The translations under genes were made by a program, and so were the position numbers. A model generated the notes under the pieces. The model ran no database searches and was not told where the DNA came from. It saw nothing but the letters and a program-made list of their open reading frames with translations. Below, in pieces: positions 2,978 to 28,093 of a stretch of 32,000 nucleotides of DNA; position 1 is the first letter of the stretch; each line of letters opens with the position of its first letter. The stretch is from Acaryochloris marina MBIC11017 (GTDB taxonomy: Bacteria; Cyanobacteriota; Cyanobacteriia; Thermosynechococcales; Thermosynechococcaceae). The stretch is from NCBI RefSeq assembly GCF_000018105.1, contig NC_009926.1:210001-242000 (forward strand), written 5' to 3'.

Positions 2978-3021
2978 TGAATCAGAAGATGCTTAAAGAG
3001 CTATATGACAAGCAGCAAAAC

Positions 3022-3050
3022 ATTTTGGATCCCCCCTACCCCCCTTAATC
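3022..3050. repeat. ATTTTGGAT motif abutting a C-rich tract (GGATCCCCCCTACCCCCCTTAATC) in the gene 1-gene 2 spacer
   Basis: Read directly from the sequence. ATTTTGGAT (3022-3030) is the reverse complement of ATCCAAAAT at 3202-3210. The same core occurs in the in-frame A-domain inserts. Confidence 0.6.
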
Positions 3051-3085
3051 TACCGTGTACACACATCTTGATCACTGCCTCTCAC

Positions 3086-3122
3086 CCCCCCTTGCCCCCC
3101 TTAAAAAGGGAGGCAAGGGGGG
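3086..3122. repeat. GC-rich imperfect palindrome (about 15-bp stem with 1 mismatch, loop TTAAAAA)
   Basis: CCCCCCTTGCCCCCC-TTAAAAA-GGGAGGCAAGGGGGG. It lies 109 nt after the gene 1 stop. No U-tract follows (ATCACGGGGGG...), so it is not a classical intrinsic terminator. It may be a stabilising hairpin or a repeat-element core. Confidence 0.7.
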
Positions 3123-3196
3123 ATCACGGGGGGTTGATCGCTGTAACCGATTAACTGTTCGAGCATCTTTTCAGTAATCAAATCATCATAATCACC

Positions 3197-3233
3197 CCAA
3201 AATCCAAAATCAATAAATCCAAAATCAGTAAAT
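3197..3233. repeat. A-rich 7-8-nt periodic repeat CCAAAAT CCAAAAT CAATAAAT CCAAAAT CAGTAAAT, just upstream of the PKS start
   Basis: Read directly from the sequence. It has the same CCAAAATCC core as the 3' arms of the in-frame inserts at 10632-10688. Confidence 0.7.
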
Positions 3234-3256
3234 CAACGTGACTTCATCTGAAAACT

Positions 3257-6200: not shown

Positions 6201-7915
6201 TCTATACCGTCAATCCCCAATCAAGCGATGATTACCAGACGCTGATCCAAACGCTAGTTAGTCAACATAAACGACTCCAAAAGATTGTGCATCTCTGGAC
6301 ACTTTCAACTAGTGAAAAGCCAAACGGTAACTTTGCCTCAGATTACCTCGCGTCGGATCCAGAATTGGTCCAAAGATGCCAATTTTCCGGATTTTACAGC
6401 CTCCTATTTCTAGCACAAGCACTCGCAAAACAAACCGAGCCAGATGCAAATTCAGATGGCATTCAGATCACGGTCATTTCTAATTATTTGCAATCAGTAA
6501 CAGGAAACGATCCTCTTGCACCCGAAAAGTCACTGCTGCTTGGCCCTATCCGGGTGATTCCCCAGGAGTATCCAACGATTCACTGTCGCAGTATCGACAT
6601 CAATTTGCCATCTCCTAATAGATGGCAAGCCGAAAGACTTACGGGGCAACTGTTGCATGACATTTGCTGTCCGATTACTGAACCGATTATTGCCTATCGG
6701 GGACATCAGCGATATGTACAAGCCGTTGAAAAAATTCGATTAGACGAACCCTCCAAAGAAGATTTTGAGGTGCGATCGCACCTGCGGCAAAATGGGGTTT
6801 ATCTAATCACAGGCGGATTGGGTCACATCGGTTTGACGTTAGCGCGATACCTGGCCGAATCGATGCAAGCCAAACTGATTTTGATGGGGCGTTCAACCTT
6901 GCCAGAAAAAGGTGAATGGCATACCTGGCTATCGACCCATGCTGCATCGGATCGGATCAGCCGCAAAATCCGCCAGATTCAGGCGCTGGAAGCCTTGGGC
7001 GCAGAAGTGTTGGTCGTGTCAGCCGATGTGTCCAATGAAGCGGAGCTGAGGAGTGCGATCTCACAGGCTGAATCTCAGTTTGGTGCAATTAACGGTGTAA
7101 TTCATGGGGCTGGGCTAGTCGGAGCCGAGACATTTAGGGCAATTTCCCAACTCGATCTCGTAACCTGTGAGCAGCAGTTTCAGCCCAAGGTTTATGGCTT
7201 ATTGGTATTAGAAAAGGTGCTGAATGACAAGCCGCTAGATTTCTGTCTACTGCTCTCGTCCCTATCGTCAGTTTTGGGTGGATTGGGTCATGCATCCTAT
7301 GCCGCTGCCAATCTGTTTATGGATGCGTTGACCCATTACCATAATCAGACCCATTCGTCTCCGTGGATCAGCATTAATTGGGATGCATGGAATCAGGATA
7401 GCGACACAGAAAAAATGGCCTTTTTCGGTTCTAGTTTGGCTCAGTTTTCAATTGAACCTGACGAGGGAATTCGGGCACTTCAGCAAATTTTACTGCATCC
7501 AGAACAGAGCCAGGTGATTGTATCCACTGCTGATTTAAGCGCTCGAATTGATCAGTGGATTAGACCAAAAGCAATTGGGAAGAAGCTAGCGCTTGAATCC
7601 TCTCACTCCCATGAAAGACCGACATTGAGTACTGATTATATTCCTCCTGAACATAAGGCGGAAAAAATACTGGCGGATATCTTTCAGCAGGTTTTGGGAG
7701 TTAAACCGATTGGCATTTATGACAGCTTTTTCGATCTGGGTGGAGATTCCATGATCGGAATTCAGCTCATTTCCAAAATTCGTAGCCATTTTCAAATTGA
7801 GCTATCTATTCAACATCTCTTTGAAGCACCCTGTATTGCTGATTTAGCCTTCAACATTGAAGCCCTTTTGATTGAGGATATTCTGGTTGAACCCTTGGGA
7901 ACTGAAAGCCGATGA
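3257..7915 (+). CDS. Type I PKS module KS-AT-KR-ACP
   Basis: 1552-aa ORF. Motifs present are DPQQRLFLE, TACSTSLVAVH, EAHGTGTALGD, KTNVGHL, FMFSGQGTQY, GHSIGEY, HAFHS, YLITGGLGHIG, SYAAAN and FFDLGGDSM. The TGA stop overlaps the next ATG (ATGA at 7912-7915). Confidence 0.95.
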   Translation: MNGLEIAIIGLSGRFPGAQTIDEFWQNLKQGVESVSFLSDEELLASGIDADTLSDPNYVKANAILSDADAFDAQFFGISPKEAELLDPQQRLFLEQSWTAISHAGYDPATYDGVIGVYAGVDTSTYLVNNLCPTYGGIADLQMFLGNAVDYLATRVAYKLNLNGPAITVQTACSTSLVAVHLACQSILNGECDMALAGGVSITVPQITGYTYQESGIASPDGHCRAFDAQAQGTLFGSGVGIVLLKRLSDVIADGDTIHAVIKGSAVNNDGALKAGYTAPSPEGQTTVISEAQAIAGIHPETITYIEAHGTGTALGDPIELAALTQVFRRQTNKTGFCAIGSVKTNVGHLSVAAGITGLIKTVLSLKHRQIPPSLHFQQPNPQIDFASSPFYVNTALADWPTGNTPRRAGVSSFGMGGTNVHVVLEETPPAIAAAPSRPWQLLKLSAKTPSALEQATAELINQLNQTPELNLADVAYTLQVGRPGFSERRMLVCQTLDQAVQDLENGTFASASSVDDRAAQRPIVFMFSGQGTQYVNMARELYDCEPTFRQWIDRGSDLLKPHLGLDLRHILYPNSAQTEDAAQQLQQTAVTQPALFLLEYALAQLWQDWGVAPTAMMGHSIGEYVAATLAGVFSFEAALTLVAARGALMQSLPAGQMLSLPLSEAEVQPLLGSGLSLAVINGAAACVVSGETDAVTDLQEKLAAQGVEGRLLHTSHAFHSAMMAPILDRFRQRVQQVSPNPPQIPFVSNVTGTWITPQEATDPAYWANHLRQTVRFADGLQTLMHDAAPILLEVGPGRTLTTLAKRHPSRPADTVILSSVRHPQDASSDAAFLLNTLGHLWLSGVLVNGAEFYRHESRRRIPLPTYPFEPQRYWIDPPRHSAHRALTALSDAGSNNGTSKTFVTQKSEIADWFYLPAWKPSVAPQAQFDPLATTCDLVLIHDQDREVGGFVNDLIQHLEQQNPNLIFVQPSTAFAQLNDRFYTVNPQSSDDYQTLIQTLVSQHKRLQKIVHLWTLSTSEKPNGNFASDYLASDPELVQRCQFSGFYSLLFLAQALAKQTEPDANSDGIQITVISNYLQSVTGNDPLAPEKSLLLGPIRVIPQEYPTIHCRSIDINLPSPNRWQAERLTGQLLHDICCPITEPIIAYRGHQRYVQAVEKIRLDEPSKEDFEVRSHLRQNGVYLITGGLGHIGLTLARYLAESMQAKLILMGRSTLPEKGEWHTWLSTHAASDRISRKIRQIQALEALGAEVLVVSADVSNEAELRSAISQAESQFGAINGVIHGAGLVGAETFRAISQLDLVTCEQQFQPKVYGLLVLEKVLNDKPLDFCLLLSSLSSVLGGLGHASYAAANLFMDALTHYHNQTHSSPWISINWDAWNQDSDTEKMAFFGSSLAQFSIEPDEGIRALQQILLHPEQSQVIVSTADLSARIDQWIRPKAIGKKLALESSHSHERPTLSTDYIPPEHKAEKILADIFQQVLGVKPIGIYDSFFDLGGDSMIGIQLISKIRSHFQIELSIQHLFEAPCIADLAFNIEALLIEDILVEPLGTESR
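3263..4537 (+). other. Ketosynthase domain, catalytic triad intact
   Basis: The triad is Cys173 (TGC 3773-3775, in TACSTS), His in EAHGTGT and His in NVGHL. Confidence 0.92.
4820..5761 (+). other. Acyltransferase domain, malonyl-CoA type
   Basis: GHSIGE active-site Ser (AGC 5117-5119). HAFH motif at 5405-5416, where methylmalonyl-specific ATs carry YASH. Confidence 0.85.
6794..7381 (+). other. Ketoreductase catalytic subdomain; a KR structural subdomain probably spans about 5970-6790
   Basis: NADPH motif GGLGHIG. K (QPKVYG), S (SSLSSV) and Y (SYAAAN) are all present. There is no LDD motif (AGLVGAE in its place), so I did not call a stereochemical type. Confidence 0.8.
7640..7861 (+). other. 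Acyl carrier protein domain
   Basis: FFDLGGDSMIGIQL, with the Ser codon TCC at 7748-7750. Confidence 0.88.
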
Positions 7916-10900
7916 CGAGTGAACTAAACAGAGACGAAAAAAGAAAGGCACTGCGATCGCGCCTCTCACCTGCTCAGCGGGCGCAACTCGACCAGCGTTT
8001 GCGGGGAGACAGATCGTCTGCGGTCAACGTCAACGCGATCCCTCGCCGTTCGACAACTTCACCGTCGCCGCTCTCCTTTGCCCAGCAGCGGTTGTGGTTT
8101 CTGCAACAGCTCGAACCTGGTCAGGCGTTTTACAACGAACATGCGGCGCTGCGACTGGCTGGGGAACTGAATCTTGCCGCTCTGGAGCACAGCCTGAATG
8201 CGCTGGTTGAACGCCATGAAGTCTTCCGCACCCGCTTTGATATCGTGCATGGGCAACCCGTGCAGGTGATTATCCCTCACCTAGCGCTGTCCTTGGCTCA
8301 AGCCGATCTGCAGACGGTACCAGCAGCCGATCAGGCCGAGGTCGTACAGCGTTTGTCAAGGGAGCAAAGCCACGAACCGTTCAATCTGGAACAGGCTCCG
8401 CTATTACGCTGGCTGTTGATCTGGCTGGATGAGCAAGACTACGTGCTGCTGTTCACCATTCACCACATCATCTTTGATGGCTGGTCGATTGATATCTTGA
8501 TGCGGGAGTTGTCGAGTTTCTATACAACGTTCTCAGCAGCAGACGATTCTGACAGTTCCAATGTCCTGCCTGAGTTACCAATTCAATATACCGAATATGC
8601 GCTCTGGCAACGGCAGTGGTTGCAGGGAGACGTGCTGCAAGCGCAACTAGACTACTGGCGGCGGCAGCTTGCCCAGGCTCCGCCGCTGCTGAATCTACCC
8701 AGCGATCGCCCACGACCTGCAATTCAAACCTATCGAGGAAAAGCCCAGACCTTTCAGCTCTCGCAGCCGATGGCTCAGGCGCTCAAGGATTTAAGTCGGC
8801 AGACGGGTCTGACGTTGTTTATGACGTTGCTGACGAGCTTCAAGATTCTGCTGCATCGCTACACCGAACAGACGGATCTGATTGTCGGTTCTCCGGTGGC
8901 GAACCGCAATCGGGCAGAGGTGGAAGGGCTGATCGGCGTGTTTGTAAATAGCCTAGTGCTGCGTACCGATTTGTCTGGCAATCCAACGGTTGCCGAACTG
9001 ATGCAGCGGGTGCGACGGGTACTGCTGGGAGCCTATGCCAACTCGGAGCTGCCGTTTGAAAAGCTGGTGGAGGAACTCCAGCCCGAACGCGATACGCACT
9101 CCAACCCCCTATTTCAGGTGTCGTTTACGCTGCACAACACGCCCCGGCAGGCGGTTGAGCTATCGGGGCTGACCCTAACGCCTGTAGAGGTGAGCCGCGA
9201 TCGCGCCTTGCTAGATCTGCGCTTGGACATGACAGAAACCGAACAGGGACTAACGGGATGCTGGGAATACAGCACCGACTTGTTTGATGATGATCGAATT
9301 GAGCGGATGAGTGGCCATTACCAGAAACTACTGGAGATGATGGTAGCTAATCAAGCCCAGCACATTGCAGATCTGTCCCTCCTGACTGAATCTGAGTTCC
9401 ACCAGTTGATGCAATGGAATCAGACACAGGCTGACTATCCCCAAGATCGGTGTTTATCTGAGCTGTTCGCCACCCAGGTTGAACAAACGCCAGATGCGAT
9501 TGCACTCATCTTCGAAGACCAACACTTGACCTATGCCGAACTCAATGCCCGAGCTAATCAACTCGCTCACTATCTGCAAACCCTAGGGGTGAAGCCAGAT
9601 GATTTGGTGGGAATTTGTTGCGATCGCAGCCTCGACATGATGATTGGACTGCTGGGCATCCTCAAATCGGGAGGAGCCTATGTGCCGATTGATCCGGACT
9701 ACCCGAGCGATCGCTTGGCCTGGATGATGAGTGATGCCCACCTAGCGATTCTGCTCACCCAACGCTCTCTAACGGATCAGCTACCTCCCCATCAGGCTCA
9801 GGTCGTTGAACTGGATGGGGATTGGCAGACAATTGCCCAGCAACCCCGACACAATCTCGCTAATCTGGCTACGGCAGACCACCTCGCCTACGTCATCTAC
9901 ACCTCCGGTTCAACAGGCAAGCCTAAGGGGGTGCAGATTACTCACCGCAGTCTGGTTAATTTCCTCTGCTCGATGCACAAACAGCCCGGTTTAACTGCGG
10001 ATGACACATTACTGGCTATCACCTCGATTTCCTTTGATATCGCGGCACTGGAACTGTATCTTCCCCTGATTACCGGGGCAAAGGTCGTCGTCGCTAGTCG
10101 TACAGTAGCCGCCGATGGCGAACAACTCAGTGAACTGCTTAGCCGCACAGGCGCAACCATTATGCAGGCCACCCCCGCCACCTGGCGGATGCTGCTGACC
10201 GCAGGCTGGTCTGGACAAGCCGGACTAAAAATGCTCTGTGGCGGTGAAGCCCTGAGTGGCGATCTGGCTCAGCAGTTAATGAACATGGGAACTTCCGTCT
10301 GGAATCTCTATGGCCCCACCGAAACCACCATCTGGTCTACGATTTATCCAGTAAAGAACCAGCCACACAATCACACCGACTCCGAAGTCCCCTTTACCAA
10401 GGGGGATTTAGGGGGATCAATCCCTATCGGCCACCCCATCGCCAACACCCAAATCTATCTCCTCGATCGCCACGGACAGCCTGTGCCTGTCGGCGTTCCC
10501 GGTGAACTGCACATCGGCGGCGACGGACTCGCACGGGGCTACCTGAATCGACCTGAGCTAACGGCAGAACGATTTATTGATTTTGGATTGCCAATTGCCG
10601 ATTTTGGATTAGAGCCAGACTCACAAATCCCTCCAAAATCCGAAATCGTTCGACTGAGCGCTCACGACGAAGTCCAAAATCCAAAATCCGTTCGTTTATA
10701 CAAAACTGGCGACCTCGCCCGCTACCGTCCGGATGGCTCAATCGAGTATCTAGGTCGCCTGGATCATCAGGTGAAAATTCGCGGCTTCCGGATTGAACTG
10801 GGGGAAATTGAAGCCGTCTTGCGTCAGCATTCAGATGTCCATGAGGTGGTCGCGATCTCCCGTCCCGACTTATTCGGAGAGTCGCAGTTAGTGGCCTATT

Positions 10901-13900
10901 TGGTCTGCCAGCCAGAACGACAGGTAGACAGTGGTGAGCTACGCAAATTCTTACGGGCGAAACTGCCAGACTACATGGTGCCTGCGACCTATATGACGCT
11001 GGAGGCTCTGCCCCTGACACCCAATGGCAAGGTCGATCGCAAGGCGCTACCTGCTCCTACACCGGAGTTGCGTATGATCGACGCTGATGCTAGTCCTGCA
11101 AGCCCAATTGAGGACATGCTGGCAGGGGTTTGGGCAGCAACTTTGGGGCTTGAGGGGGTGGGTCGCTACGACAACTTCTTTGAGTTGGGCGGACATTCTC
11201 TGCTGGCAACACAGGTTATGTCTCAGATACAGCGTTTGTTGCAAGTAGAGGTACCGTTGCGGTCGCTATTTGAATCACCCACCGTCGCACAGCTAGCGGA
11301 ACGGGTTGAGGCGGCAATCCAGACCGGAGCCTCCTTAAGTATCCCAGCTATCCAGTCCCGGTCGAATCGGGACGTTGCCCCCCTCTCATTTGCCCAAGAG
11401 CGCATGTGGTTTTTGGCTCAGCTTGAACCCGAAAACCCCTTTTACAATCTGCCGATTGCCGTCGCTCTGGACGGTTTGCTTGACCTCGATGCCTTGGAGC
11501 AAACTCTGACAGAGATTCTGCGTCGCCATCAGGGGCTACGCACCCGCATTGAGACTCGCGTAGGAGTTGCGATCGCTCGGATTGCAGATCCCGTTCCGTT
11601 CCCGCTACGGCGAGTTGATTTGAGCCAGTCCGCCAGCCTAGATCGAGAGCCTGAAATCCAGCGTTGGATTGACACCGCAGCCCGTCAACCCTTTGACCTC
11701 CAGCAGGATCTCCTCCTGCGAGCCACCGTACTTCGCCTGTCGGAGCAGGAGCATATTTTGCTGTTGACGCTGCATCACATTGCCGCTGATGCCTGGTCTT
11801 TCGGACTGCTGGCCAGTGAAATCAGCGCTCTCTATCCGGCTTTCTGTGACGGCAACCCCTCTCCCTTACCGGAACTACCGATTCAGTATGGCGACGTGGC
11901 GGTGTGGCAGCGACAGTGGCTACAAGGGAACGCCCTCCAAACGCAAATGGACTATTGGCGGCAGCAGCTACAGGATGCACCCGCGTTGCTGAACCTGCCC
12001 ACCGACTATCCCCGCCCCGCTGTCCAGACCTATCGAGGGGCACGCTACGGTTTTGAGCTTTCTGCCAGCCTGACGCGATCGCTACATCATCTCAGTCAGC
12101 AGGCAGGCTGCACTCTATTTATGACGCTGCTGGCCGCGTTCAAGCTGCTGCTGGGGCGCTACAGCAACAGTACCGATATCCTCGTGGGAACGCCCATTGC
12201 CAACCGCAATCGGGCTGAGGTTGAAGACCTGATTGGCTGTTTCGTGAATACGCTGGTGCTGCGAACGGATCTCTCCCATCAGCCAACGGTATTGAAACTA
12301 CTTGAGCGGGTGCGAGAGGTAGCTCTGGGAGCCTATGCCCATCAGGATTTGCCTTTCGAACAACTGGTAGACGGACTGCAACTAGGGCGATCGCTGAGTC
12401 ATACGCCGCTATTTCAGGTGATGTTTGTGCTGCAGAACACGCCGCTACCGCAGGTGACGCTGCCAAACCTCCAGATTCATCCGCTCGACACTGGGAGCGG
12501 TACTACTCAGTTTGATCTCACCCTTTCTCTGGAGGAAACGCCTGCCGGACTCACTGGCGTTATTGAGTATAACTGCGACTTGTTTGAGGAAGCGACCATT
12601 ACTCGGATGGCAGGACACTACCAAATGCTGCTGGACGGGTTTGTTGCCCATCCCCAGCGGCCTGTGGCAGAACTGCCCTGTTTGACAACTGCCGAGCAGC
12701 AGCAGCTAGTTGCTTGGAATCAAACCCAGGCCGTGTATTCACAGGATGCCTGTATTCACCATTTGTTTGAAGCCCAGGTTGAACGGATACCCGATGCGAT
12801 CGCAGTTGTTTTCCAGGATCAGCAGCTGACGTATGGGGAACTCAACCAGAGAGCCAATCAGTTGGCCCAGAAGTTGCGATCTCAGGGAGTACAGCCGGAT
12901 GTTCCTGTGGGCATTTGTGTGGAGCGCTCAATCGATATGCTGGTGGCGCTGCTAGGGGTACTGAAGGCAGGCGGCGCGTACCTGCCCCTCGATCCTACCT
13001 ATCCGTCTGAGCGGCTGGCGTTTATGCTGGACGATGCCCAAGTTAAGCATTTGGTTACTCAGTCCGCTCTGTGCGATCGTATTCCTCCCCATCAGGCACA
13101 AGTGGTTTATCTGGATAGACTTGCCACTGAAAACTCTCGACCGGATTCAGGCAATCCAATTCACTCACCGCAGACGGAAAATTTAGCCTATGTAATCTAT
13201 ACCTCCGGCTCTACGGGCAAGCCTAAAGGGGTGATGGTAAACCACCGCTCTCTAGTGAACTACACCGAAGCGATTGCTTCAGCCTATGTTCTGAAACCAA
13301 GCGATCGCGTCCTGCAATTTGCCTCTATCAACTTCGATGTGGCGGCAGAAGAAATCTTCCCGACGCTGGCGCAGGGAGGGACATTGGTCTTACGCACCGA
13401 TGAGATGCTCGATTCAATCCCCACCTTTTTACATCAGGTTCAAGCGTTAGAGTTGACGGTGCTCAACCTGCCCACCGCATTTTGGCATCAGTTCACGGCT
13501 GAACTCGACAGAATGTCAACGACTGTTCCGGATTCCCTACGGCTGGTGGTAATTGGTGGCGAACGCGCTCTAGCCGATCGCGTCCAAACCTGGCATCGAG
13601 TGGTGGGCGAACAGATTCGCCTCGTGAACTGCTACGGCCCAACCGAAGCAACTATCGGCGCAACGCTCTGTGATTTAACCGCCTATGCTCCAACTGAATG
13701 GGCGGGGAACGAATCGGGGGCAACCATCCTCAGTTCTAACGATGTCCCCATCGGCAAACCCATTCAGAACGTCCAAACCTACGTGCTCAACGCCGACTTG
13801 CAACCTGTCCCCATCGGCATTCCTGGCGAACTGTATATCGGTGGCGATGGTCTCGCACGCGGCTACTTGAATCGACCTGAGCTAACGGCAGAACGATTTG

Positions 13901-16071
13901 TTGATTTGAGATTGCCGATATCTAATTCAAAATTCAAAACTCAAAATTCAAAACTCTCCCCTTCGATTTGTTTATATAAAACGGGCGATCTTGTCCGCTA
14001 CCGCCCCGACGGTAATCTAGAGTATCTGGGCCGCATCGACCATCAGGTGAAGATGCGCGGCTTTCGGATTGAATTGGGTGAAATTGAAGCGGCATTGGGT
14101 CAGCATCCGGCGGTGCAGAATGCCGTGGTAGTTGACGACGAGACGGAACTGGGTACCCGCCGCTTGGTGGCTTATGGGGTAGCAATGCCCTATGCCGACC
14201 TGTCGATGCCTGAGTTGCGCCAGTTTTTGACAGAGAAACTACCGGCCTACATGGTGCCTGCGGTGTTTGTGCTTCTGGAAACTCTGCCACTGATGCCCAA
14301 TGGCAAGGTGAATCGCCAGGCACTGCCCGCTCCAGATGCCACCCAGGCGGAGTCTGACGCTACTGTGGCTTCCCCCCGAACACCGACTGAAATCACCTTG
14401 GCTGAGATTTGGGCGCAGGTGTTGTCAGTGACGCAGGTGGGCATTCACGACAACTTCTTTGAGTTGGGCGGCGATTCGATTCTCAGTCTCCAAGTGGTAG
14501 CCAGATCTCATCAAGCCGGACTACAATTCACGCCCAAACAGCTTTTTGAGCATCAGACCATTGCCGAATTGGCGATCGTTGCCCAGACGAAGCACGAAAC
14601 GGAGATTGAGCAGGGATTAGCCACGGGGTCTGTTGGGTTAACGCCTATCCAGCAGTGGTTCTTTGAGCAACAGTTGCCGGATCCCCATCACTTCAACCAA
14701 GCGGTACTTCTAGAAGTGCCGCAGCCACTCGACCCAGGGCTGCTGGAACAGGCAGTTCAACAGGTGCTCATTCACCACGATGCGCTCCGGCTGCGGTTCG
14801 AACCAATAGAGTCCAGCTGGCGGCAGGAATATGCTCCACCTGATTCAGCGCTACTTCTAATCAGGTGGGATTTCTCAACTCTGAGCAAGGCGGAGCAGCA
14901 GGCCGCCTTTGCTACTGCAGCCGCTGAACTCCACACCAGCCTTGACCTATCTAAGGGGCCGCTGCTGCGGGTGGGCTATTTTGATTGGGGAGATCACCTC
15001 TCGGATAGCCTACTGATTGTGATTCATCACTTGGTAGTGGACGGTGTATCCTGGCGCATCCTGCTGGAGGATTTGCAGACGGCCTACCAGCACCTCAGTC
15101 GAGGAGAAACGGTGCAGCTTCCCGCTAAAACGCTGTCGTTCCAGCAGTGGTCGCAGCAACTACAGCAGATGGCTCAAACGGTACTGGACTCATCAGAACC
15201 CGACTACTGGCTGGCACAGCAGTCTTCGACACCGCTGCCTGTGGATATAGTAGGTGCAGAAAAAGCAGGGGCGGAAAATACGGTTGCCTCAGCGGCTACG
15301 GTTCACTGCATCTTGAGCATGGCTGAGACTCAAGCTTTGCTCAAAGAAGTGCCGTCTGTCTACAACACTGAAATAAACGACGTGTTGCTGACTGCCTTAG
15401 TACAAACGTTAACGGCATGGGTTGAGCCTGATGCAGCTATCCATTCACCCACCTTCTTGATCGATCTCGAAGGCCACGGACGAGAGGGTATTACCGCAAA
15501 CCTCAACGTCTCACGCACGGTGGGCTGGTTCACCACCGTCTTTCCAGTGGCTCTAAGCCTTGACCCCAACGTCCATCCAGGCGAAGCGTTAAAGCAGGTC
15601 AAAGAACAACTGCGCCGCATTCCCCATCAAGGGCTCGGCTACAGGCTGCTGCGCTATCTCAGCGAGGAACCAAGCCTCACCGCAGCGTTGAAAAACCTCC
15701 CCCAAGCCAACATTCTGTTCAACTACTTAGGCCAGTTTGACTCTGCGCTGACGGACACTGCCCTATTTCGTCCGCTGTCGGAATCGGCAGGGCCAACTCA
15801 AAGTCCACGCGGTCAACGCAGCCACTGGCTGGAGATCAATTGCTGGGTGAGTGGCGGACAACTGCATCTGGACTGGATTTACAGTCAGGCGCTGCATCAA
15901 TCCAGCACGATGGAAACGCTGGCGCAGCAGTTTATGGAGACATTGCGATCGCTGATTGCCCACTGTCAATCTCCAGACGCAGGTGGCTATACCCCCTCTG
16001 ACTTTTCGGAAGCAGACTTGAGTCAAGATGACCTCGATCGCTTCCTAGCCCACCTCAATCGCAGGAGTTAG
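7912..16071 (+). CDS. NRPS, two modules plus epimerase: C-A(Gly)-T-C-A(unassigned)-T-E
   Basis: 2719-aa ORF. Motifs, in order: SFAQQRLWFL, HHIIFDGWS, LAYVIYTSGSTGKPKGV, FFELGGHSLLAT, SFAQERMWFL, HHIAADAWS, LAYVIYTSGSTGKPKGV, FFELGGDSILSL. E-domain motifs follow: PIQQWFF, HHLVVDGVSW, EGHGRE, RTVGWFT and FNYLGQ. Confidence 0.95.
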   Translation: MTSELNRDEKRKALRSRLSPAQRAQLDQRLRGDRSSAVNVNAIPRRSTTSPSPLSFAQQRLWFLQQLEPGQAFYNEHAALRLAGELNLAALEHSLNALVERHEVFRTRFDIVHGQPVQVIIPHLALSLAQADLQTVPAADQAEVVQRLSREQSHEPFNLEQAPLLRWLLIWLDEQDYVLLFTIHHIIFDGWSIDILMRELSSFYTTFSAADDSDSSNVLPELPIQYTEYALWQRQWLQGDVLQAQLDYWRRQLAQAPPLLNLPSDRPRPAIQTYRGKAQTFQLSQPMAQALKDLSRQTGLTLFMTLLTSFKILLHRYTEQTDLIVGSPVANRNRAEVEGLIGVFVNSLVLRTDLSGNPTVAELMQRVRRVLLGAYANSELPFEKLVEELQPERDTHSNPLFQVSFTLHNTPRQAVELSGLTLTPVEVSRDRALLDLRLDMTETEQGLTGCWEYSTDLFDDDRIERMSGHYQKLLEMMVANQAQHIADLSLLTESEFHQLMQWNQTQADYPQDRCLSELFATQVEQTPDAIALIFEDQHLTYAELNARANQLAHYLQTLGVKPDDLVGICCDRSLDMMIGLLGILKSGGAYVPIDPDYPSDRLAWMMSDAHLAILLTQRSLTDQLPPHQAQVVELDGDWQTIAQQPRHNLANLATADHLAYVIYTSGSTGKPKGVQITHRSLVNFLCSMHKQPGLTADDTLLAITSISFDIAALELYLPLITGAKVVVASRTVAADGEQLSELLSRTGATIMQATPATWRMLLTAGWSGQAGLKMLCGGEALSGDLAQQLMNMGTSVWNLYGPTETTIWSTIYPVKNQPHNHTDSEVPFTKGDLGGSIPIGHPIANTQIYLLDRHGQPVPVGVPGELHIGGDGLARGYLNRPELTAERFIDFGLPIADFGLEPDSQIPPKSEIVRLSAHDEVQNPKSVRLYKTGDLARYRPDGSIEYLGRLDHQVKIRGFRIELGEIEAVLRQHSDVHEVVAISRPDLFGESQLVAYLVCQPERQVDSGELRKFLRAKLPDYMVPATYMTLEALPLTPNGKVDRKALPAPTPELRMIDADASPASPIEDMLAGVWAATLGLEGVGRYDNFFELGGHSLLATQVMSQIQRLLQVEVPLRSLFESPTVAQLAERVEAAIQTGASLSIPAIQSRSNRDVAPLSFAQERMWFLAQLEPENPFYNLPIAVALDGLLDLDALEQTLTEILRRHQGLRTRIETRVGVAIARIADPVPFPLRRVDLSQSASLDREPEIQRWIDTAARQPFDLQQDLLLRATVLRLSEQEHILLLTLHHIAADAWSFGLLASEISALYPAFCDGNPSPLPELPIQYGDVAVWQRQWLQGNALQTQMDYWRQQLQDAPALLNLPTDYPRPAVQTYRGARYGFELSASLTRSLHHLSQQAGCTLFMTLLAAFKLLLGRYSNSTDILVGTPIANRNRAEVEDLIGCFVNTLVLRTDLSHQPTVLKLLERVREVALGAYAHQDLPFEQLVDGLQLGRSLSHTPLFQVMFVLQNTPLPQVTLPNLQIHPLDTGSGTTQFDLTLSLEETPAGLTGVIEYNCDLFEEATITRMAGHYQMLLDGFVAHPQRPVAELPCLTTAEQQQLVAWNQTQAVYSQDACIHHLFEAQVERIPDAIAVVFQDQQLTYGELNQRANQLAQKLRSQGVQPDVPVGICVERSIDMLVALLGVLKAGGAYLPLDPTYPSERLAFMLDDAQVKHLVTQSALCDRIPPHQAQVVYLDRLATENSRPDSGNPIHSPQTENLAYVIYTSGSTGKPKGVMVNHRSLVNYTEAIASAYVLKPSDRVLQFASINFDVAAEEIFPTLAQGGTLVLRTDEMLDSIPTFLHQVQALELTVLNLPTAFWHQFTAELDRMSTTVPDSLRLVVIGGERALADRVQTWHRVVGEQIRLVNCYGPTEATIGATLCDLTAYAPTEWAGNESGATILSSNDVPIGKPIQNVQTYVLNADLQPVPIGIPGELYIGGDGLARGYLNRPELTAERFVDLRLPISNSKFKTQNSKLSPSICLYKTGDLVRYRPDGNLEYLGRIDHQVKMRGFRIELGEIEAALGQHPAVQNAVVVDDETELGTRRLVAYGVAMPYADLSMPELRQFLTEKLPAYMVPAVFVLLETLPLMPNGKVNRQALPAPDATQAESDATVASPRTPTEITLAEIWAQVLSVTQVGIHDNFFELGGDSILSLQVVARSHQAGLQFTPKQLFEHQTIAELAIVAQTKHETEIEQGLATGSVGLTPIQQWFFEQQLPDPHHFNQAVLLEVPQPLDPGLLEQAVQQVLIHHDALRLRFEPIESSWRQEYAPPDSALLLIRWDFSTLSKAEQQAAFATAAAELHTSLDLSKGPLLRVGYFDWGDHLSDSLLIVIHHLVVDGVSWRILLEDLQTAYQHLSRGETVQLPAKTLSFQQWSQQLQQMAQTVLDSSEPDYWLAQQSSTPLPVDIVGAEKAGAENTVASAATVHCILSMAETQALLKEVPSVYNTEINDVLLTALVQTLTAWVEPDAAIHSPTFLIDLEGHGREGITANLNVSRTVGWFTTVFPVALSLDPNVHPGEALKQVKEQLRRIPHQGLGYRLLRYLSEEPSLTAALKNLPQANILFNYLGQFDSALTDTALFRPLSESAGPTQSPRGQRSHWLEINCWVSGGQLHLDWIYSQALHQSSTMETLAQQFMETLRSLIAHCQSPDAGGYTPSDFSEADLSQDDLDRFLAHLNRRS
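8065..9351 (+). other. Condensation domain (accepts the ACP-bound polyketide-thiazole acyl chain)
   Basis: PLSFAQQRLWFLQQLEP, RHEVFRTRF, HHIIFDGWS, IQYTEYALWQ, IGVFVNSLVLR, ELPFEKLV. Confidence 0.88.
9439..11052 (+). other. Adenylation domain, glycine code DILQLGLIWK
   Basis: The code comes from FDIAALE / MQATPAT / LCGGEA / WNLYGPTETTIW aligned by hand to GrsA. The domain lies inside the perfect repeat 9313-11057. Confidence 0.85.
10576..10695 (+). repeat. In-frame MITE-like palindromic insert in the A6-A7 loop (encodes IDFGLPIADFGLEPDSQIPPKSEIVRLSAHDEVQNPKSVR)
   Basis: GATTTTGGATT at 10579-10589 and again at 10600-10610. The perfect reverse complement AATCCAAAATC is at 10678-10688, and TCCAAAATC is at 10632-10640. 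The paralogous A domain at 22946-24463 lacks the segment. Confidence 0.7.
11098..11301 (+). other. Thiolation domain
   Basis: YDNFFELGGHSLLATQV, with the Ser codon TCT at 11197-11199. Confidence 0.9.
11377..12666 (+). other. Condensation domain (LCL-like), C3 motif variant HHIAADAWS
   Basis: PLSFAQERMWFLAQLEP, RHQGLRTRI, HHIAADAWS (11773-11796), IQYGDVAVWQ, IGCFVNTLVLR, HQDLPFEQLV. Confidence 0.88.
12739..14331 (+). other. Adenylation domain, specificity unassigned (hand-derived code DVENVGCIGK)
   Basis: The code comes from FDVAAEE / LNLPTAF / VIGGER / NCYGPTEATIG. The acidic residue at position 239 hints at a polar or cationic substrate, but I do not recognise the code. Confidence 0.8.
13903..13971 (+). 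repeat. Shorter, diverged in-frame insert at the same A6-A7 position (DLRLPISNSKFKTQNSKLSPSIC)
   Basis: GATTTGAGATTGCC resembles GATTTTGGATTGCC. It is followed by AATTCAAAATTCAAAACTCAAAATTCAAAACTC, an A-rich 7-nt periodic tract. Confidence 0.6.
14374..14577 (+). other. Thiolation domain of the E-partner type (GGDSI)
   Basis: HDNFFELGGDSILSLQV. The GGDSI variant is characteristic of carrier domains that feed E domains. Confidence 0.88.
14623..15981 (+). other. Epimerization domain, followed by a COM-donor-like tail (about 15990-16068)
   Basis: LTPIQQWFFEQ, HHLVVDGVSWRIL, DLEGHGREG, SRTVGWFTTVFPV, PHQGLGYRLLRYL, LFNYLGQFD. The tail is GGYTPSDFSEADLSQDDLDRFLAHL. Confidence 0.9.
16063..16067 (+). 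promoter_or_regulatory. Shine-Dalgarno-like AGGAG for the stand-alone C gene
   Basis: AGGAG lies 9 nt upstream of ATG 16077, inside the last codons of the preceding gene. Confidence 0.6.
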
Positions 16072-25600: not shown

Positions 25601-28093
25601 CCGATTGCCAACCGCAACCGGGCTGAAACCGAGAGACTGATTGGCCTGTTCGTCAACACCCTGGTGCTGCGGACGGATCTGTCGGATAACCCCAACGTTA
25701 CCGAACTCTTGAGCCGCGTCCGAGAGGTAGCCCTGGGAGCCTATGCTCATCAGGATTTACCCTTTGAGCAGTTAGTAGAAGAATTGCAGCCTGAGCGATC
25801 GCTGAGCTATTCTCCCCTCTTTCAAGTAATGTTCGTGTTGCAAAACGCTCCATTCTCACAGGTTGATCTGCCAGAATTGACCCTGACCCCGCTGGAGAGC
25901 GATAGCGGCACAACGCAGTTTGACCTCATCCTCTCACTGACAGAAACGGATGCAGGTCTGATGGGCACGGTGGAATATGACACGGATCTATTTGGGGTAG
26001 GGACGATCGCCCGTCTAGTCGGCCATTACCAGAAACTACTGGAGATGATGGTAGCTAATCAAGCCCAGCACATTGCAGATCTGTCCCTCCTGACTGAATC
26101 TGAGTTCCACCAGTTGATGCAATGGAATCAGACACAGGCTGACTATCCCCAAGATCGGTGTTTATCTGAGCTGTTCGCCACCCAGGTTGAACAAACGCCA
26201 GATGCGATTGCACTCATCTTCGAAGACCAACACTTGACCTATGCCGAACTCAATGCCCGAGCTAATCAACTCGCTCACTATCTGCAAACCCTAGGGGTGA
26301 AGCCAGATGATTTGGTGGGAATTTGTTGCGATCGCAGCCTCGACATGATGATTGGACTGCTGGGCATCCTCAAATCGGGAGGAGCCTATGTGCCGATTGA
26401 TCCGGACTACCCGAGCGATCGCTTGGCCTGGATGATGAGTGATGCCCACCTAGCGATTCTGCTCACCCAACGCTCTCTAACGGATCAGCTACCTCCCCAT
26501 CAGGCTCAGGTCGTTGAACTGGATGGGGATTGGCAGACAATTGCCCAGCAACCCCGACACAATCTCGCTAATCTGGCTACGGCAGACCACCTCGCCTACG
26601 TCATCTACACCTCCGGTTCAACAGGCAAGCCTAAGGGGGTGCAGATTACTCACCGCAGTCTGGTTAATTTCCTCTGCTCGATGCACAAACAGCCCGGTTT
26701 AACTGCGGATGACACATTACTGGCTATCACCTCGATTTCCTTTGATATCGCGGCACTGGAACTGTATCTTCCCCTGATTACCGGGGCAAAGGTCGTCGTC
26801 GCTAGTCGTACAGTAGCCGCCGATGGCGAACAACTCAGTGAACTGCTTAGCCGCACAGGCGCAACCATTATGCAGGCCACCCCCGCCACCTGGCGGATGC
26901 TGCTGACCGCAGGCTGGTCTGGACAAGCCGGACTAAAAATGCTCTGTGGCGGTGAAGCCCTGAGTGGCGATCTGGCTCAGCAGTTAATGAACATGGGAAC
27001 TTCCGTCTGGAATCTCTATGGCCCCACCGAAACCACCATCTGGTCTACGATTTATCCAGTAAAGAACCAGCCACACAATCACACCGACTCCGAAGTCCCC
27101 TTTACCAAGGGGGATTTAGGGGGATCAATCCCTATCGGCCACCCCATCGCCAACACCCAAATCTATCTCCTCGATCGCCACGGACAGCCTGTGCCTGTCG
27201 GCGTTCCCGGTGAACTGCACATCGGCGGCGACGGACTCGCACGGGGCTACCTGAATCGACCTGAGCTAACGGCAGAACGATTTATTGATTTTGGATTGCC
27301 AATTGCCGATTTTGGATTAGAGCCAGACTCACAAATCCCTCCAAAATCCGAAATCGTTCGACTGAGCGCTCACGACGAAGTCCAAAATCCAAAATCCGTT
27401 CGTTTATACAAAACTGGCGACCTCGCCCGCTACCGTCCGGATGGCTCAATCGAGTATCTAGGTCGCCTGGATCATCAGGTGAAAATTCGCGGCTTCCGGA
27501 TTGAACTGGGGGAAATTGAAGCCGTCTTGCGTCAGCATTCAGATGTCCATGAGGTGGTCGCGATCTCCCGTCCCGACTTATTCGGAGAGTCGCAGTTAGT
27601 GGCCTATTTGGTCTGCCAGCCAGAACGACAGGTAGACAGTGGTGAGCTACGCAAATTCTTACGGGCGAAACTGCCAGACTACATGGTGCCTGCGACCTAT
27701 ATGACGCTGGAGGCTCTGCCCCTGACACCCAATGGCAAGGTCGATCGCAAGGCGCTACCTGCTCCCGACCTATCCCGGACGCAGGATGAAATCGTCCCAC
27801 CCCGCAGCCACACCGAAGCGACATTGGCTACCCTCTATACCGAAATTCTTGGGGTAGAGATAATCAGTGTCCATGACAACTTTTTTGAACTGGGGGGACA
27901 TTCGTTACTTGCTACCCGCCTCACCTCCCGTCTGCGCGAAACCTTTGAACTGGAGCTCTCTCTGCGTAGCCTGTTTGAAAAACCGACCATTGCTGAACTG
28001 GCAGAACACATCGACGTTCTCCGGTTGGCGATTGCCCAAGCCCCCATCCCTGCTACTACAACCGAACCGGGTCGAAAGGAAATTGAACTATGA
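18845..28093 (+). CDS. NRPS, three modules: [C-terminal-lobe C remnant]-A(Dab-like)-T-C-A(Gly)-T-C-A(Gly)-T
   Basis: 3082-aa ORF. Motifs, in order: [151 protein letters not shown]. The TGA stop overlaps the next ATG (ATGA at 28090-28093). Confidence 0.95.
   Translation: [3082 protein letters not shown]
19667..21265 (+). other. Adenylation domain, hand-derived code DIWEMTADDK (closest to my recollection of a Dab code, DIWELTAD..)
   Basis: The code comes from SSDISVWQ / VELVPVV / MVTGED / [11 protein letters not shown]. This A domain is the most divergent in the cluster, and its N-terminal core is visibly AT-richer. Confidence 0.8.
21311..21514 (+). other. Thiolation domain
   Basis: [18 protein letters not shown]. 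Confidence 0.9.
21584..22864 (+). other. Condensation domain (LCL-like)
   Basis: [65 protein letters not shown]. Confidence 0.88.
22310..22570 (+). repeat. Near-identical tract shared by two C domains (partner 25511-25771)
   Basis: I saw about 8 mismatches in about 260 nt. Identity falls off on both sides. The tract encodes [86 protein letters not shown]. Confidence 0.75.
22946..24463 (+). other. Adenylation domain, glycine code DILQLGLIWK; paralogue lacking the A6-A7 insert
   Basis: FDIAALE / MQATPAT / LCGGEA / [12 protein letters not shown]. The A6-A7 segment is short ([27 protein letters not shown]). Confidence 0.85.
24116..24460 (+). repeat. A-domain C-terminal-subdomain tract about 96% identical to 10708-11052 and 27416-27760
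   Basis: I saw about a dozen mismatches in about 345 nt. Identity starts right after the insert site (GGCGACCTCGCCCGCTACCG...). Confidence 0.75.
24506..24718 (+). other. Thiolation domain
   Basis: [18 protein letters not shown]. Confidence 0.9.
24794..26059 (+). other. Condensation domain (LCL-like)
   Basis: [65 protein letters not shown]. Confidence 0.88.
25511..25771 (+). repeat. Partner of the 22310-22570 tract (offset +3,201)
   Basis: As for the partner tract. Confidence 0.75.
26147..27760 (+). other. Adenylation domain, glycine; nucleotide-identical copy of 9439-11052
   Basis: It lies inside the perfect repeat 26021-27765. Confidence 0.88.
27284..27403 (+). repeat. Identical second copy of the in-frame palindromic insert
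   Basis: It is part of the perfect repeat. The inverted-repeat arms are at 27287-27297 and 27386-27396. Confidence 0.7.
27812..28012 (+). other. Thiolation domain
   Basis: [18 protein letters not shown]. Confidence 0.9.

Follow-up and report, generated by a model that had tools for sequence, protein, structure and literature searches.

The first A domain (A1, 9350-11000) of the ORF 7912-16071 carries, between motifs A6 and A7, a palindromic segment that lengthens a surface loop while leaving the reading frame open. The question raised by this locus is what this segment is, how it came to lie in four A domains of one gene cluster and whether it does anything for the enzyme. Coordinates refer to the window, that is the whole stretch of 32,000 nucleotides that was analysed. 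The segment is composed of the following parts:

10576..10698, + strand: segment encoding the A6-A7 loop of A1, lying between ...TAERF and YKTGD
10579..10613, + strand: left arm, five degenerate heptamers (GATTTTG GATTGCC AATTGCC GATTTTG GATTAGA)
10632..10647, + strand: inner right arm, TCCAAAATCCGAAATC, identified by its inverted pairs; the predicted fold pairs it with 10599-10610
10648..10672, + strand: spacer without repeats that splits the right arm, 48% identical between the A-domain copies A1 and A6
10673..10688, + strand: outer right arm, TCCAAAATCCAAAATC, or (TCCAAAA)2.4, a tandem repeat of period 7 that pairs with 10579-10589 (11/11)

The loop comprises 41 codons, against 13 in the canonical loop. 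Its conceptual translation is IDFGLPIADFGLEPDSQIPPKSEIVRLSAHDEVQNPKSVRL, bounded by GELHIGGDGLARGY and YKTGD, and the predicted peptide from 10579-10688 includes IADFGLEPDSQIPPK. The first-pass annotation had described a repeat-derived, palindromic segment in frame, and the inverted arms and the open-frame translation both agree with this description. The left arm contains two exact copies of GATTTTGGATT (10579-10589 and 10600-10610, spacing 21 nt); these copies, their complements and the perfect 11-bp outer pair (10579-10589 with 10678-10688) were recovered at the positions announced. By contrast, the nesting of two separate elements was not retained: the left arm is an unbroken run of five heptamers, so that the "nested" repeats correspond to one decayed heptamer hairpin. 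The arms are built of tandem heptamers, (GATTNNN)n and (NNNAATC)n, which read as DFGFWIL / QNPKSKI, and the period-7 array spans 10673-10689. GATTTTGGATT includes TTGGATT, which fits the heptamer class TDNGATT and its complement.

The repeat is not restricted to the coding region. The 9-mer GATTTTGGA is present in 14 copies in the window for 0.47 expected, a number reached in none of 100 shuffles, and the same heptamer forms an intergenic array:

3197..3236, + strand: array (CCAAAAT)n, with its inverted partner CATTTTGGATC at 3021-3031

The further copies of the repeat family that had been anticipated are thus found in intergenic DNA of the window and also, as described below, widely in genomes. 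The hairpin was likewise recovered by prediction: the RNA fold of 10560-10710 reaches -36.5 kcal/mol (z -2.39) and the 120-nt insert folded alone -31.6 kcal/mol (z -2.86), a value equalled in 1 of 200 shuffles. The window's copy is therefore only moderately structured (z -2.4 to -2.9).

The alignment of 149 homologues gives the canonical loop consensus I-P-N/D/H-P-F-S-D-E-P-G-A-R-L. Of the full-length A-domain homologues, the best 120 (none above 67% identity to the query) have a loop of exactly 13 residues in 82 cases and inserts in about four; the canonical 13-residue loop found among the closest homologues is IPNPFSDEPGARL. The most similar loops are those of the homologues P0001 and P0030. 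With the closest homologous A domains lacking the segment, none of the outcomes that would have spoken against the first-pass annotation was obtained. The locus consequently displays a palindromic repeat within a reading frame, a preserved frame and homologues without the insert, the combination by which elements of the Rickettsia palindromic element (RPE) kind are recognised. In the AlphaFold2 model (mean pLDDT 87.5), values below 50 are restricted to residues 380-405, which correspond to the insert, and to residues 301-314 of another loop. The insert, with a pLDDT of about 40, is bounded by the strands 369-372 and 408-419 and is left unaligned against the solved LgrA structure. It is therefore predicted to lie outside the folded core, in a disordered and structurally tolerant surface loop, which is in line with the tolerance first proposed for this loop. 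A literature search on repeats in the A6-A7 loop found nothing relevant.

Versions of the insert occupy one common site in four of the six condensation-linked A domains of the window. Besides A1, these are:

27284..27406, + strand: identical copy in the third A domain (A5) of ORF 18845-28093, established by sequence identity
30802..30933, + strand: diverged homologous copy (A-domain copy A6) in the ORF running off the window's end, encoding the peptide VDFGLPLFDAGLDTGQLLSPNSKIPSAAQQSHAFEAINPESTRL
13900..13974, + strand: short variant in the second A domain (A2) of ORF 7912-16071, reading GATTTGA GATTGCC GATATCT then (AATTCAA)4

The presence of diverged versions in three further A domains of the cluster shows that the insert does not stem from one recent insertion event. 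A5 is 100% identical to A1 over the entire A domain, and the spread within the cluster proceeded by A-domain duplication and gene conversion. Since this spread the spacers have diverged, and the arms have kept a higher similarity than the flanks. No conserved peptide emerges: the central part of the insert cannot be aligned between the A1 and A6 copies, and there is no significant protein match. The A6 copy retains the 11-bp outer stem through one G.U pair, its overall fold having a z-score of -0.05, while the A2 variant has lost the hairpin (z +0.67). Two of the four versions in the window thus no longer fold. The window's copy is probably old and decaying, with little consequence for the enzyme.

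A further domain, of Gly type, had been proposed as the empty site of the insertion. Two features bear on this proposal:

24080..24106, + strand: short loop of 9 codons, VVHSQWGQL by translation, in the Gly-type A domain
24112..24400, + strand: tract starting just after the loop and covering motifs A7 to A9/A10, 96-97% identical to 10704-10990 and to 27412-27700

The Gly-type domain does read FVVHSQWGQLYRTGD at the loop position, and about 300 nt downstream of the site are 96-97% identical to the insert-bearing domain, as had been claimed. The upstream flanks, however, are only 56-84% identical, so that the match does not resume on both sides of the site. Furthermore, a short loop of this type (IIHPQWGRL) is also seen in P0122, the foreign homologue closest to it, and the loop HSQWGQL is a natural variant rather than an empty site. 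With high identity on the downstream flank only, the loop marks the edge of a gene-conversion tract; the boundary of 24112..24400 is such an edge, or that of an exchange of the N-terminal core (Acore) of the A domain. When the metagenome loci described below were tested for recombination junctions at the loop, segments at least 90% identical were found only in the window's own pairs, identity correlations across the loop were uninformative and chimeric loops had no flanks in common with putative donors. The suggestion that the repeat is a recombination hotspot accordingly draws on the window alone.

A metagenome scan was carried out with AATCCAAAATC located at most 30 nt upstream of the YKTGD codon pattern; being built around the A6-A7 site, it is by itself no measure of site preference. 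It recovered 56 loci, of which about 35-38 are NRPS A domains with the repeat between NPF(A/S/T)D and G-x-RLYKTGD. Five of the loci (L143, L149, L173, L179 and L133) have stems of 31-32 bp, with -49 to -55 kcal/mol and z-scores of -8 to -13, and their perfect-stem inserts have a GC content of 0.41 against 0.65 in the flanks; these are young copies, foreign to their hosts. Over 600 nt per side, the A-domain flanks of the hairpin loci are only 57-73% identical, and vertical inheritance cannot explain identical hairpins in A domains so diverged. The same site also houses other heptamer families (GATTGCA/TGCAATC, GATTTAC and AGGATGA among the examples). A left arm organised as in the window recurs in L164, a cyanobacterial locus, where some 31 of 38 positions agree when the alignment is read by eye and the flanks are 57-64% identical. 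In-frame heptamer hairpins were also found in the A2-A3 and A8-A9 loops. Several metagenome contigs end inside the loop. The Logan short-read contigs for the window's locus begin about 30 nt upstream of the A2 loop, a position deduced from coordinates.

Outside NRPS genes, the hairpin is a dispersed repeat. The genome scan gave at least 120 loci; among those listed, 70 hairpins have stems of at least 14 bp, and 60 of these belong to four phyla: Cyanobacteria (at least 22), Acidobacteriota (at least 20), Chloroflexota (at least 12) and Planctomycetota (at least 6), these figures describing the matches listed and not a census. The majority of the listed hairpins fall outside real genes, and those seemingly in long open frames are mostly upstream of the real start codon, e.g. 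before rpoC in L080 and L026. The Nostoc version forms a discrete unit, about 95 nt long, whose ends are conserved. Only one match was found among 2.9 million viral contigs, so that phages are no obvious vector.

Taken together, these observations make it likely that the insert is a partly decayed hairpin of a widespread AT-rich family, repeat DNA of a selfish or neutral kind that is tolerated because the loop is permissive. The family would consist of small AT-rich hairpins whose arms are GATT-core heptamers, (GATTTTG)n ... (CAAAATC)n. A copy would have entered, or arisen in, the DNA encoding the tip of the A6-A7 beta-hairpin loop, where it would have taken the place of the turn residues in the canonical sequence ...NPF-S-D-[E-P]-G-A-RL. 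Its survival is explained by stop-free heptamer arrays, by an inserted length that is a multiple of three and by a predicted disordered peptide (DFGL... / ...QNPKS). Whichever of the six frames is read, (GATTTTG)n is free of stop codons; as the inserted length is also divisible by three, the hairpin does not interrupt the reading frame. The insert most likely has no function in catalysis, selection presumably letting the repeat persist only in permissive loops. Side effects would be expected at the level of nucleic acids, where the hairpin may act as a secondary-structure obstacle and as a fragile point at which A-domain cores exchange.

The same hairpin could instead have been produced locally, by slipped-strand expansion of a proto-repeat of the loop followed by inverted duplication, with no import. 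The PNPF codons, about CCAAATCCATTT, resemble CCAAAATCC, and tandem-only loops such as NPF-NNPKSKIQNPK-L exist (L130, L131, L137, L144 and L177), as does the (AATTCAA)4 loop of A2 in the window; in L153 the two arms have grown symmetrically, by 21 nt each, which shows that slippage does occur on such arrays. This origin is nevertheless unlikely for inserts of 41% GC that are identical between A domains of 65% GC hosts with flanks about 60% identical. It also leaves aside that the hairpin is plentiful outside NRPS genes in the same phyla, and that heptamer families unlike the PNPF codons occupy the same site.

A bolder reading sees in these heptamer hairpins selfish palindromes that actively spread across phyla with no known mobilising enzyme, that repeatedly colonise the A2-A3, A6-A7 and A8-A9 loops and whose secondary structure would provide breakpoints favouring Acore swaps at the boundary of Acore with the C-terminal subdomain (Asub). 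We regard it as doubtful. Swaps of Acore diversify non-ribosomal peptides. The conversion edge located right after the loop is the window's one example for the breakpoint part of this reading.

It had also been suggested that the hairpin has consequences for translation. According to an adaptive explanation, selection would maintain an mRNA hairpin that pauses the ribosome or tunes stability, or a loop peptide used for docking or regulation. When the A1 and A6 copies are compared, 45 of 54 positions are identical in the arms against 26 of 56 in the spacers, the flanks being at 0.63-0.75 (Fisher test, p = 6e-5 for arms versus spacers and p = 0.025 for arms versus flanks). This better conservation of the arms, seen in one pair of sequences, could mean selection on the hairpin instead of neutrality; a G.U change preserves the outer stem, and perfect stems persist in many A domains. 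The conservation of the arms may, however, also reflect repeat homogenisation. The peptide, moreover, is neither conserved nor predicted to be ordered, the A2 copy no longer has the hairpin, of which little is left in the A6 copy, and most related A domains work without the insert. The Rfam search of 10300-10900 matched no family at E-values up to 1, and chimeric loops with non-complementary arms occur (L128; L143 at 5005; L173 at 7921). Maintenance by selection is thus improbable.

The first-pass annotation had called the segment "MITE-like". The likeness holds only loosely, for the inverted-repeat arms, the small size (about 110 nt), the stable hairpin and the presence of the arm motif in the window's intergenic DNA, and MITEs are common in cyanobacteria and able to fuse with reading frames (PMC3184786). 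A true MITE, i.e. a non-autonomous transposon mobilised by an insertion sequence (IS), inserted once and absent from the Gly-type domain, is nonetheless highly improbable. The target-site duplication that could have been expected was not found: neither the window copy nor the perfect copies have direct repeats at their borders, the junctions of the perfect copies being ...TTCGCC|GATTTTGG...CCAAAAT|GGG.... The arms are tandem heptamers in variable number and not fixed terminal repeats, and the supposed empty site agrees on one flank only. No transposase is encoded within the window, and the insert showed neither a target-site duplication nor a defined element end. The arm motif is dispersed, but the whole unit was found nowhere else: the metagenome scan with a 29-base pattern fitting both the A1 and A6 copies gave 0 matches, the protein search with the insert peptide alone gave no candidate with three 5-residue words in common, and the HMMER search with the 51-residue insert and short flanks gave 0 matches among 1.84 billion representatives.

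It is barely conceivable that the segment, instead of being inserted, is an old loop extension conserved in this A-domain clade, since homologous nucleotides in four of the six cluster A domains are explained by duplication or conversion (A1 and A5 being 100% identical) and the closest foreign homologues have canonical or short loops without the insert.

If the reading as tolerated repeat DNA holds, these hairpins mark places where an A domain accepts 20-60 extra residues, which would be useful for NRPS engineering, e.g. when placing tags, split sites or grafted domains. Perfect palindromes of 30 bp in very large biosynthetic genes would break short-read assemblies and may promote rearrangement. 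Finally, the occurrence of one AT-rich heptamer hairpin in Cyanobacteria, Acidobacteriota, Chloroflexota and Planctomycetota, with no known spreading machinery, would raise the question of how small repeats propagate.

To our knowledge, no mobilising protein is known for the cyanobacterial STRR heptamers and small dispersed repeats. These repeats, the subject of Mazel et al. 1990 and Elhai et al. 2008, are reportedly very short and highly iterated, and some are said to form hairpins. STRR units (e.g. CCCCAGT) differ in sequence from the heptamers of the insert and are described as intergenic tandem arrays, not as in-frame palindromes. The stem-loop P6b of the Nostoc tRNA-Leu(UAA) group I intron is composed of heptanucleotide repeats with the Class I motif TDNGATT (PMC4476775), and the insert works in a similar way. 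Both P6b and the insert have arms of GATT-core heptamers, and TTGGATT of the insert fits this motif. The length of P6b shifts by gain and loss of repeats, and whole stem-loops have been replaced repeatedly and independently (PMC4476775). However, P6b is non-coding intron RNA of one gene in Nostocales, whereas the insert lies in an NRPS reading frame and not at the P6b locus.

Cyanobacterial MITEs (Nezha and others; PMC3184786) are small, multi-copy hairpins with inverted repeats, sometimes fused to ORFs. The insert is likewise a small hairpin with inverted arms in an ORF, and its arm motif is dispersed; MITEs, however, possess IS-derived terminal repeats and target-site duplications, whereas the arms of the insert are heptamer arrays and no target-site duplication was found. 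The RPE (Ogata et al. 2000, listed in PMC3184786) are palindromic, in frame, translated, tolerated at the sites where they persist and regarded as selfish DNA, as would be the insert. They are known from Rickettsia only, as distinct families with a fixed consensus of 105-146 bp, whereas the present hairpins are heptamer arrays of variable length, with several families at one site and hosts in several phyla. Interrupted A domains, for their part, house an auxiliary domain in the A8-A9, A2-A3 or A4-A5 interval (Labby et al. 2015, as cited in PMC8097286). In both cases surface loops accept additions, and heptamer hairpins are also found in A2-A3 and A8-A9. Interrupted A domains differ in carrying folded functional enzymes, and the A6-A7 loop is absent from the sites listed for them (PMC8097286).

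AT-rich heptamer hairpins, with (GATTTTG)n and (CAAAATC)n arms and a GATT core, recur between the core motifs A6 and A7 of NRPS adenylation (A) domains and are also present elsewhere in genomes. This wider pattern across A domains and genomes is a more interesting result than the copy found in the window, which is an old, decaying example. The window carries a cyanobacterial NRPS/PKS cluster (ORFs with condensation, AMP-binding, PP-binding, KS-AT-KR and aminotransferase domains) and contains 32 HIP1 octamers (GCGATCGC) in 32 kb; HIP1 over-representation is a cyanobacterial marker. The insert (10576-10698) belongs to the first A domain (domain A1) of the ORF 7912-16071, where it lies between the motifs A6 (GELHIGGDGLARGY) and A7 (YKTGD), and its frame translates as IDFGLPIADFGLEPDSQIPPKSEIVRLSAHDEVQNPKSVRL. 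The repeats reported in the first-pass annotation were all recovered, with GATTTTGGATT at 10579 and 10600, TCCAAAATCCGAAATC at 10632 and TCCAAAATCCAAAATC at 10673, as was the perfect 11-bp outer inverted pair. A 9-mer of the repeat occurs 14 times in the window for 0.47 expected. The proposed potential to form a hairpin was confirmed by predicted RNA folding (-31.6 kcal/mol, z -2.86 for the insert; z -2.39 for the wider 10560-10710).

The inverted pairs had been described as nested; the pairs are real, the nesting of elements is not. Divided into heptamers, the left side forms a single array, its five units being degenerate (GATTTTG GATTGCC AATTGCC GATTTTG GATTAGA) and the right side is composed of (AAAATCC)-type units interrupted by a 25-nt non-repeat spacer; the insert is therefore one decayed heptamer-repeat hairpin. 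The unit (GATTTTG)n and its complement are stop-free in all six frames and give, when translated, permuted forms of DFGFWIL and QNPKSKI, which explains the DFGL and NPKS peptides of the insert and allows such a hairpin to sit inside a gene provided that it spans a whole number of codons.

Loops between motifs A6 and A7 in the six condensation-linked A domains, and intergenic heptamer repeats, of the window (window positions)
3021, intergenic: inverted partner CATTTTGGATC
3197-3236, intergenic: heptamer array (CCAAAAT)n
10576, domain A1: 41-codon insert, identical to that of A5
13900, domain A2: 25-codon variant with a terminal (AATTCAA)4
20846, domain A3: near-canonical loop, VANPF...
24080, domain A4 (Gly type): short loop, VVHSQWGQL
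27284, domain A5: 41-codon insert, identical to that of A1
30802, domain A6: 44 codons, diverged homologue of the A1 insert

Between domains A1 and A6, the arms are identical at 45/54 positions and the spacers at 26/56, for an identity of 0.63-0.75 in the flanks (Fisher p of 6e-5 for arms versus spacers and 0.025 for arms versus flanks). The A6 copy retains its outer stem via a G.U pair, with an overall fold z of -0.05, and folding into a hairpin is lost in A2. Domains A1 and A5, which belong to different ORFs, are 100% identical across about 1.65 kb (9350-11000 and 26058-27708), which reflects duplication or conversion at a very recent date or else a collapsed assembly. For the condensation-domain DNA upstream of A5, the resemblance is instead to the Gly module, at up to 98%. 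All three public short-read (Logan) contigs of the locus (L001-L003) start, from their coordinates, at about 13870, some 30 nt before the A2 loop, which suggests that the sequence common to A domains beside the loop breaks assemblies. Both intergenic repeats lie in 2977-3257, the only sizeable intergenic stretch nearby, where, in addition, runs of G and C form a palindrome (CCCCCCCTTGCCCCCCTTAAAAAGGGAGGCAAGGGGGG; 3040-3140) predicted to fold into a strong DNA hairpin.

The segment is not an ancient conserved feature of its A-domain clade, the alternative raised in the first-pass annotation. Close homologues lack it: among the best 120 full-length homologues (at most 67% identity), the loop has exactly 13 residues in 82 and inserts are found in only about four. 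The consensus of such loops (n=149) is I-P-(N/D/H)-P-F-S-(D/A)-(E/D)-P-G-A-R-L. The insert peptide yielded no candidate protein with three common 5-residue words and no significant match among 1.84 billion representatives.

Domain A4 had been considered as an empty-site paralogue whose flanks become about 96% identical after the site. The downstream identity stands: A4 is 96-97% identical to A1/A5 for about 300 nt from the GGCGAC of the YKTGD codons, then dropping again. Upstream of the loop it is 56-84%, and P0122, the nearest foreign homologue of A1 (67% identity), has the same type of short loop, FIIHPQWGRLYRTGD; the A4 loop is therefore a natural variant, and its reading as a vacated or never-filled target was rejected. 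In the window a conversion-tract edge lies at the loop: the pattern bears the signature of a conversion tract over motifs A7 to A9/A10 or, seen from the other side, of an exchange of the N-terminal core (Acore) whose right-hand edge is at this place. NRPS recombination proceeds predominantly by Acore exchanges in which the C-terminal subdomain (Asub) is retained (PMC8097286). The recombination idea is drawn from this single junction of the window, and no further recent exchanges were found among the metagenome loci. On its contig (L180), P0122 is a stand-alone ORF of 550 residues and the cluster is broken up by DDE transposase genes.

A search with the loop and its flanks detected fragments with different inserts at exactly the same place.

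Loop inserts in homologous proteins
P0001: ADFGLRAPSGHLDFGLTAGADPIQNPKSKIQN
P0002: DKETRRQGDKETRR
P0017: LRIG...IRNPRVPIRI
P0030, P0032 and P0084: KDEG...FILHPSSF

Metagenomes were scanned for AATCCAAAATC at most 30 nt upstream of the YKTGD codon pattern, giving 56 loci of which about 35-38 are NRPS A domains. Five of them, from GC-rich hosts (L143, L149, L173, L179, L133), carry perfect hairpins composed of (GATTTTG)4.5, a loop of 4-6 nt and (CAAAATC)4.5, with stems of 31-32 bp (-49 to -55 kcal/mol, z -8 to -13) and a GC content of 0.41 versus 0.65 in the flanks. They are placed between NPF-A-D and G-x-RLYKTGD, where they stand in for the two residues that form the turn in the canonical loop. 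The architecture of L163 is the same, with (GATTGCA)n/(TGCAATC)n units, and L153 and L139 have GATTTAC-type units; two A domains of the L153 contig differ by 21 nt, gained symmetrically on each arm. Over the 600 nt on either side of such identical hairpins, the A-domain DNA reaches only 57-73% identity, so the hairpins cannot be old inherited sequence; judging from these sequences, some process acting on the DNA itself copies, inserts or homogenises them. Other loops have non-complementary arms, each from a different repeat family (L128 3394-3501, L143 5005-5121, L173 7921-8052). The contigs L145, L162 and L163 start with the same 100-nt chimeric loop followed by sequences only about 60% identical, the same cassette thus being seemingly present in at least three contexts. 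The cyanobacterial L164 has an insert organised like that of the window (VDCGLPILDLGLE...PKSKIQNPKS), its left arm being alike at about 31/38 positions (by eye, on the printed alignment) for 57-64% in the flanks. In L151, near 2128, an in-frame stop lies inside the loop repeat (FIDLRFTIDDLQFNRQS*IVNPKSYRTGD), indicating a pseudogene, a sequencing error or read-through.

Outside NRPS genes, the genome scan with GATTTTGGA-N10-40-TCCAAAATC recovered at least 120 loci.

Hairpins with a stem of at least 14 bp among the matches listed
Cyanobacteria: at least 22
Acidobacteriota: at least 20
Chloroflexota: at least 12
Planctomycetota: at least 6

Among the matches listed, the hairpins are mostly extragenic and their GC content is 0.32 versus 0.53 for their loci. 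Apparent long ORFs over them usually correspond to stop-free repeat upstream of the real start codon, e.g. before rpoC. The (GATTTTG)n/(CAAAATC)n repeat is common to the four phyla (L004-L123), including hosts of about 60% GC. Only one viral contig in 2.9 million carries the hairpin. The Nostoc copies (L042, L062, L071, L087, L098, L107, L112-L114, L117, L122) form a discrete element, about 95 nt long, whose ends are conserved (GGGGAGTAAG...TTGAATTGCCCAAT) and which lies dispersed among unrelated flanks.

The AlphaFold2 model of the A domain (43 aligned sequences; mean pLDDT 87.5, pTM 0.83) is of low confidence only at residues 380-405, i.e. the insert, predicted to be disordered, and 301-314. 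The insert protrudes between the strands 369-372 and 408-419, and residues 371-406 are unmatched in the alignment to the solved LgrA structure. The stretch 301-314, also absent from LgrA, corresponds to a second repeat-like insert of the same A domains between motif A5 (NLYGPTE) and PIGHPI (10385-10420; also 23893-23909 and 27109-27125), whose DNA CCCCTTTACCAAGGGGGATTTAGGGGGATC encodes PFTKGDLGGS and whose motif GGGGGATTTAGGGGGAT occurs 3 times for 0.01 expected. With Tandem Repeats Finder, 129 arrays of period 7, 14 or 21 were detected in 28 NRPS-bearing sequences (about 300 kb), 49 of them at most 150 nt upstream of motif A7, a zone representing 2.6% of the sequence, a figure biased by the choice of loci. 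For the other arrays, the surrounding peptides reveal two more recurrent in-frame sites, exemplified for the A2-A3 loop (...VLITDS[IYDLRLTIDDLEQSQTSIVNRKSKIVN]...DADWPTIAQQ...) and for the A8-A9 loop (...RLVAYVV[QGSGVRDQGSG...PDPRSLIPE]LRAFL...).

In-frame heptamer hairpins (A2-A3 loop) and heptamer-repeat inserts (A8-A9 loop), positions on the scanned loci
L128: A8-A9, 5168-5303
L132: A8-A9, 496-599
L133: A2-A3, 6855-6934
L139: A2-A3, 1446-1494
L143: A8-A9, 11792-11931
L149: A2-A3, 4534-4614; A8-A9, 5653-5853
L153: A2-A3, 5560-5608 and 8832-9005
L160: A2-A3, 956-992 and 9319-9350
L173: A2-A3, 1857-1934 and 10686-10753; A8-A9, 11815-11934 and 8267-8345
L179: A8-A9, 5906-5990 and 2575-2652

The A8-A9 inserts follow ...RLVAYVV, precede LRxFL..LPxYM and belong to the families QGSGVRDQGSG / PDPRSLIPE and ETLNAERRT / SSAFSVQRSAL. 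Both loops are also places where interrupted A domains are known to carry auxiliary domains (PMC8097286).

The simplest reading would be a selection filter, in which hairpins would arise or land widely and persist only as in-frame copies in permissive loops, of which the very large NRPS genes would offer many. The insert of the window probably came as a copy from a dispersed family and did not arise locally, and it probably plays no role in catalysis; its hairpin could hinder translation or replication and promote recombination. The name MITE-like, given in the first-pass annotation, fits this palindromic, repeat-derived, in-frame sequence only loosely; identity as a MITE is unlikely, since there is no target duplication, the inverted arms lack fixed termini and the searches found no second copy of the whole unit. 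Our literature search found no description of repeat hairpins in A-domain loops. The Rickettsia palindromic elements are palindromic repeats tolerated in frame, and the insert behaves likewise. Among described elements, the nearest relative is P6b, a stem-loop of the Nostoc tRNA-Leu intron, which consists of TDNGATT heptamers, varies in repeat number and has been repeatedly replaced (PMC4476775); the window insert is built alike, as a heptamer stem-loop.
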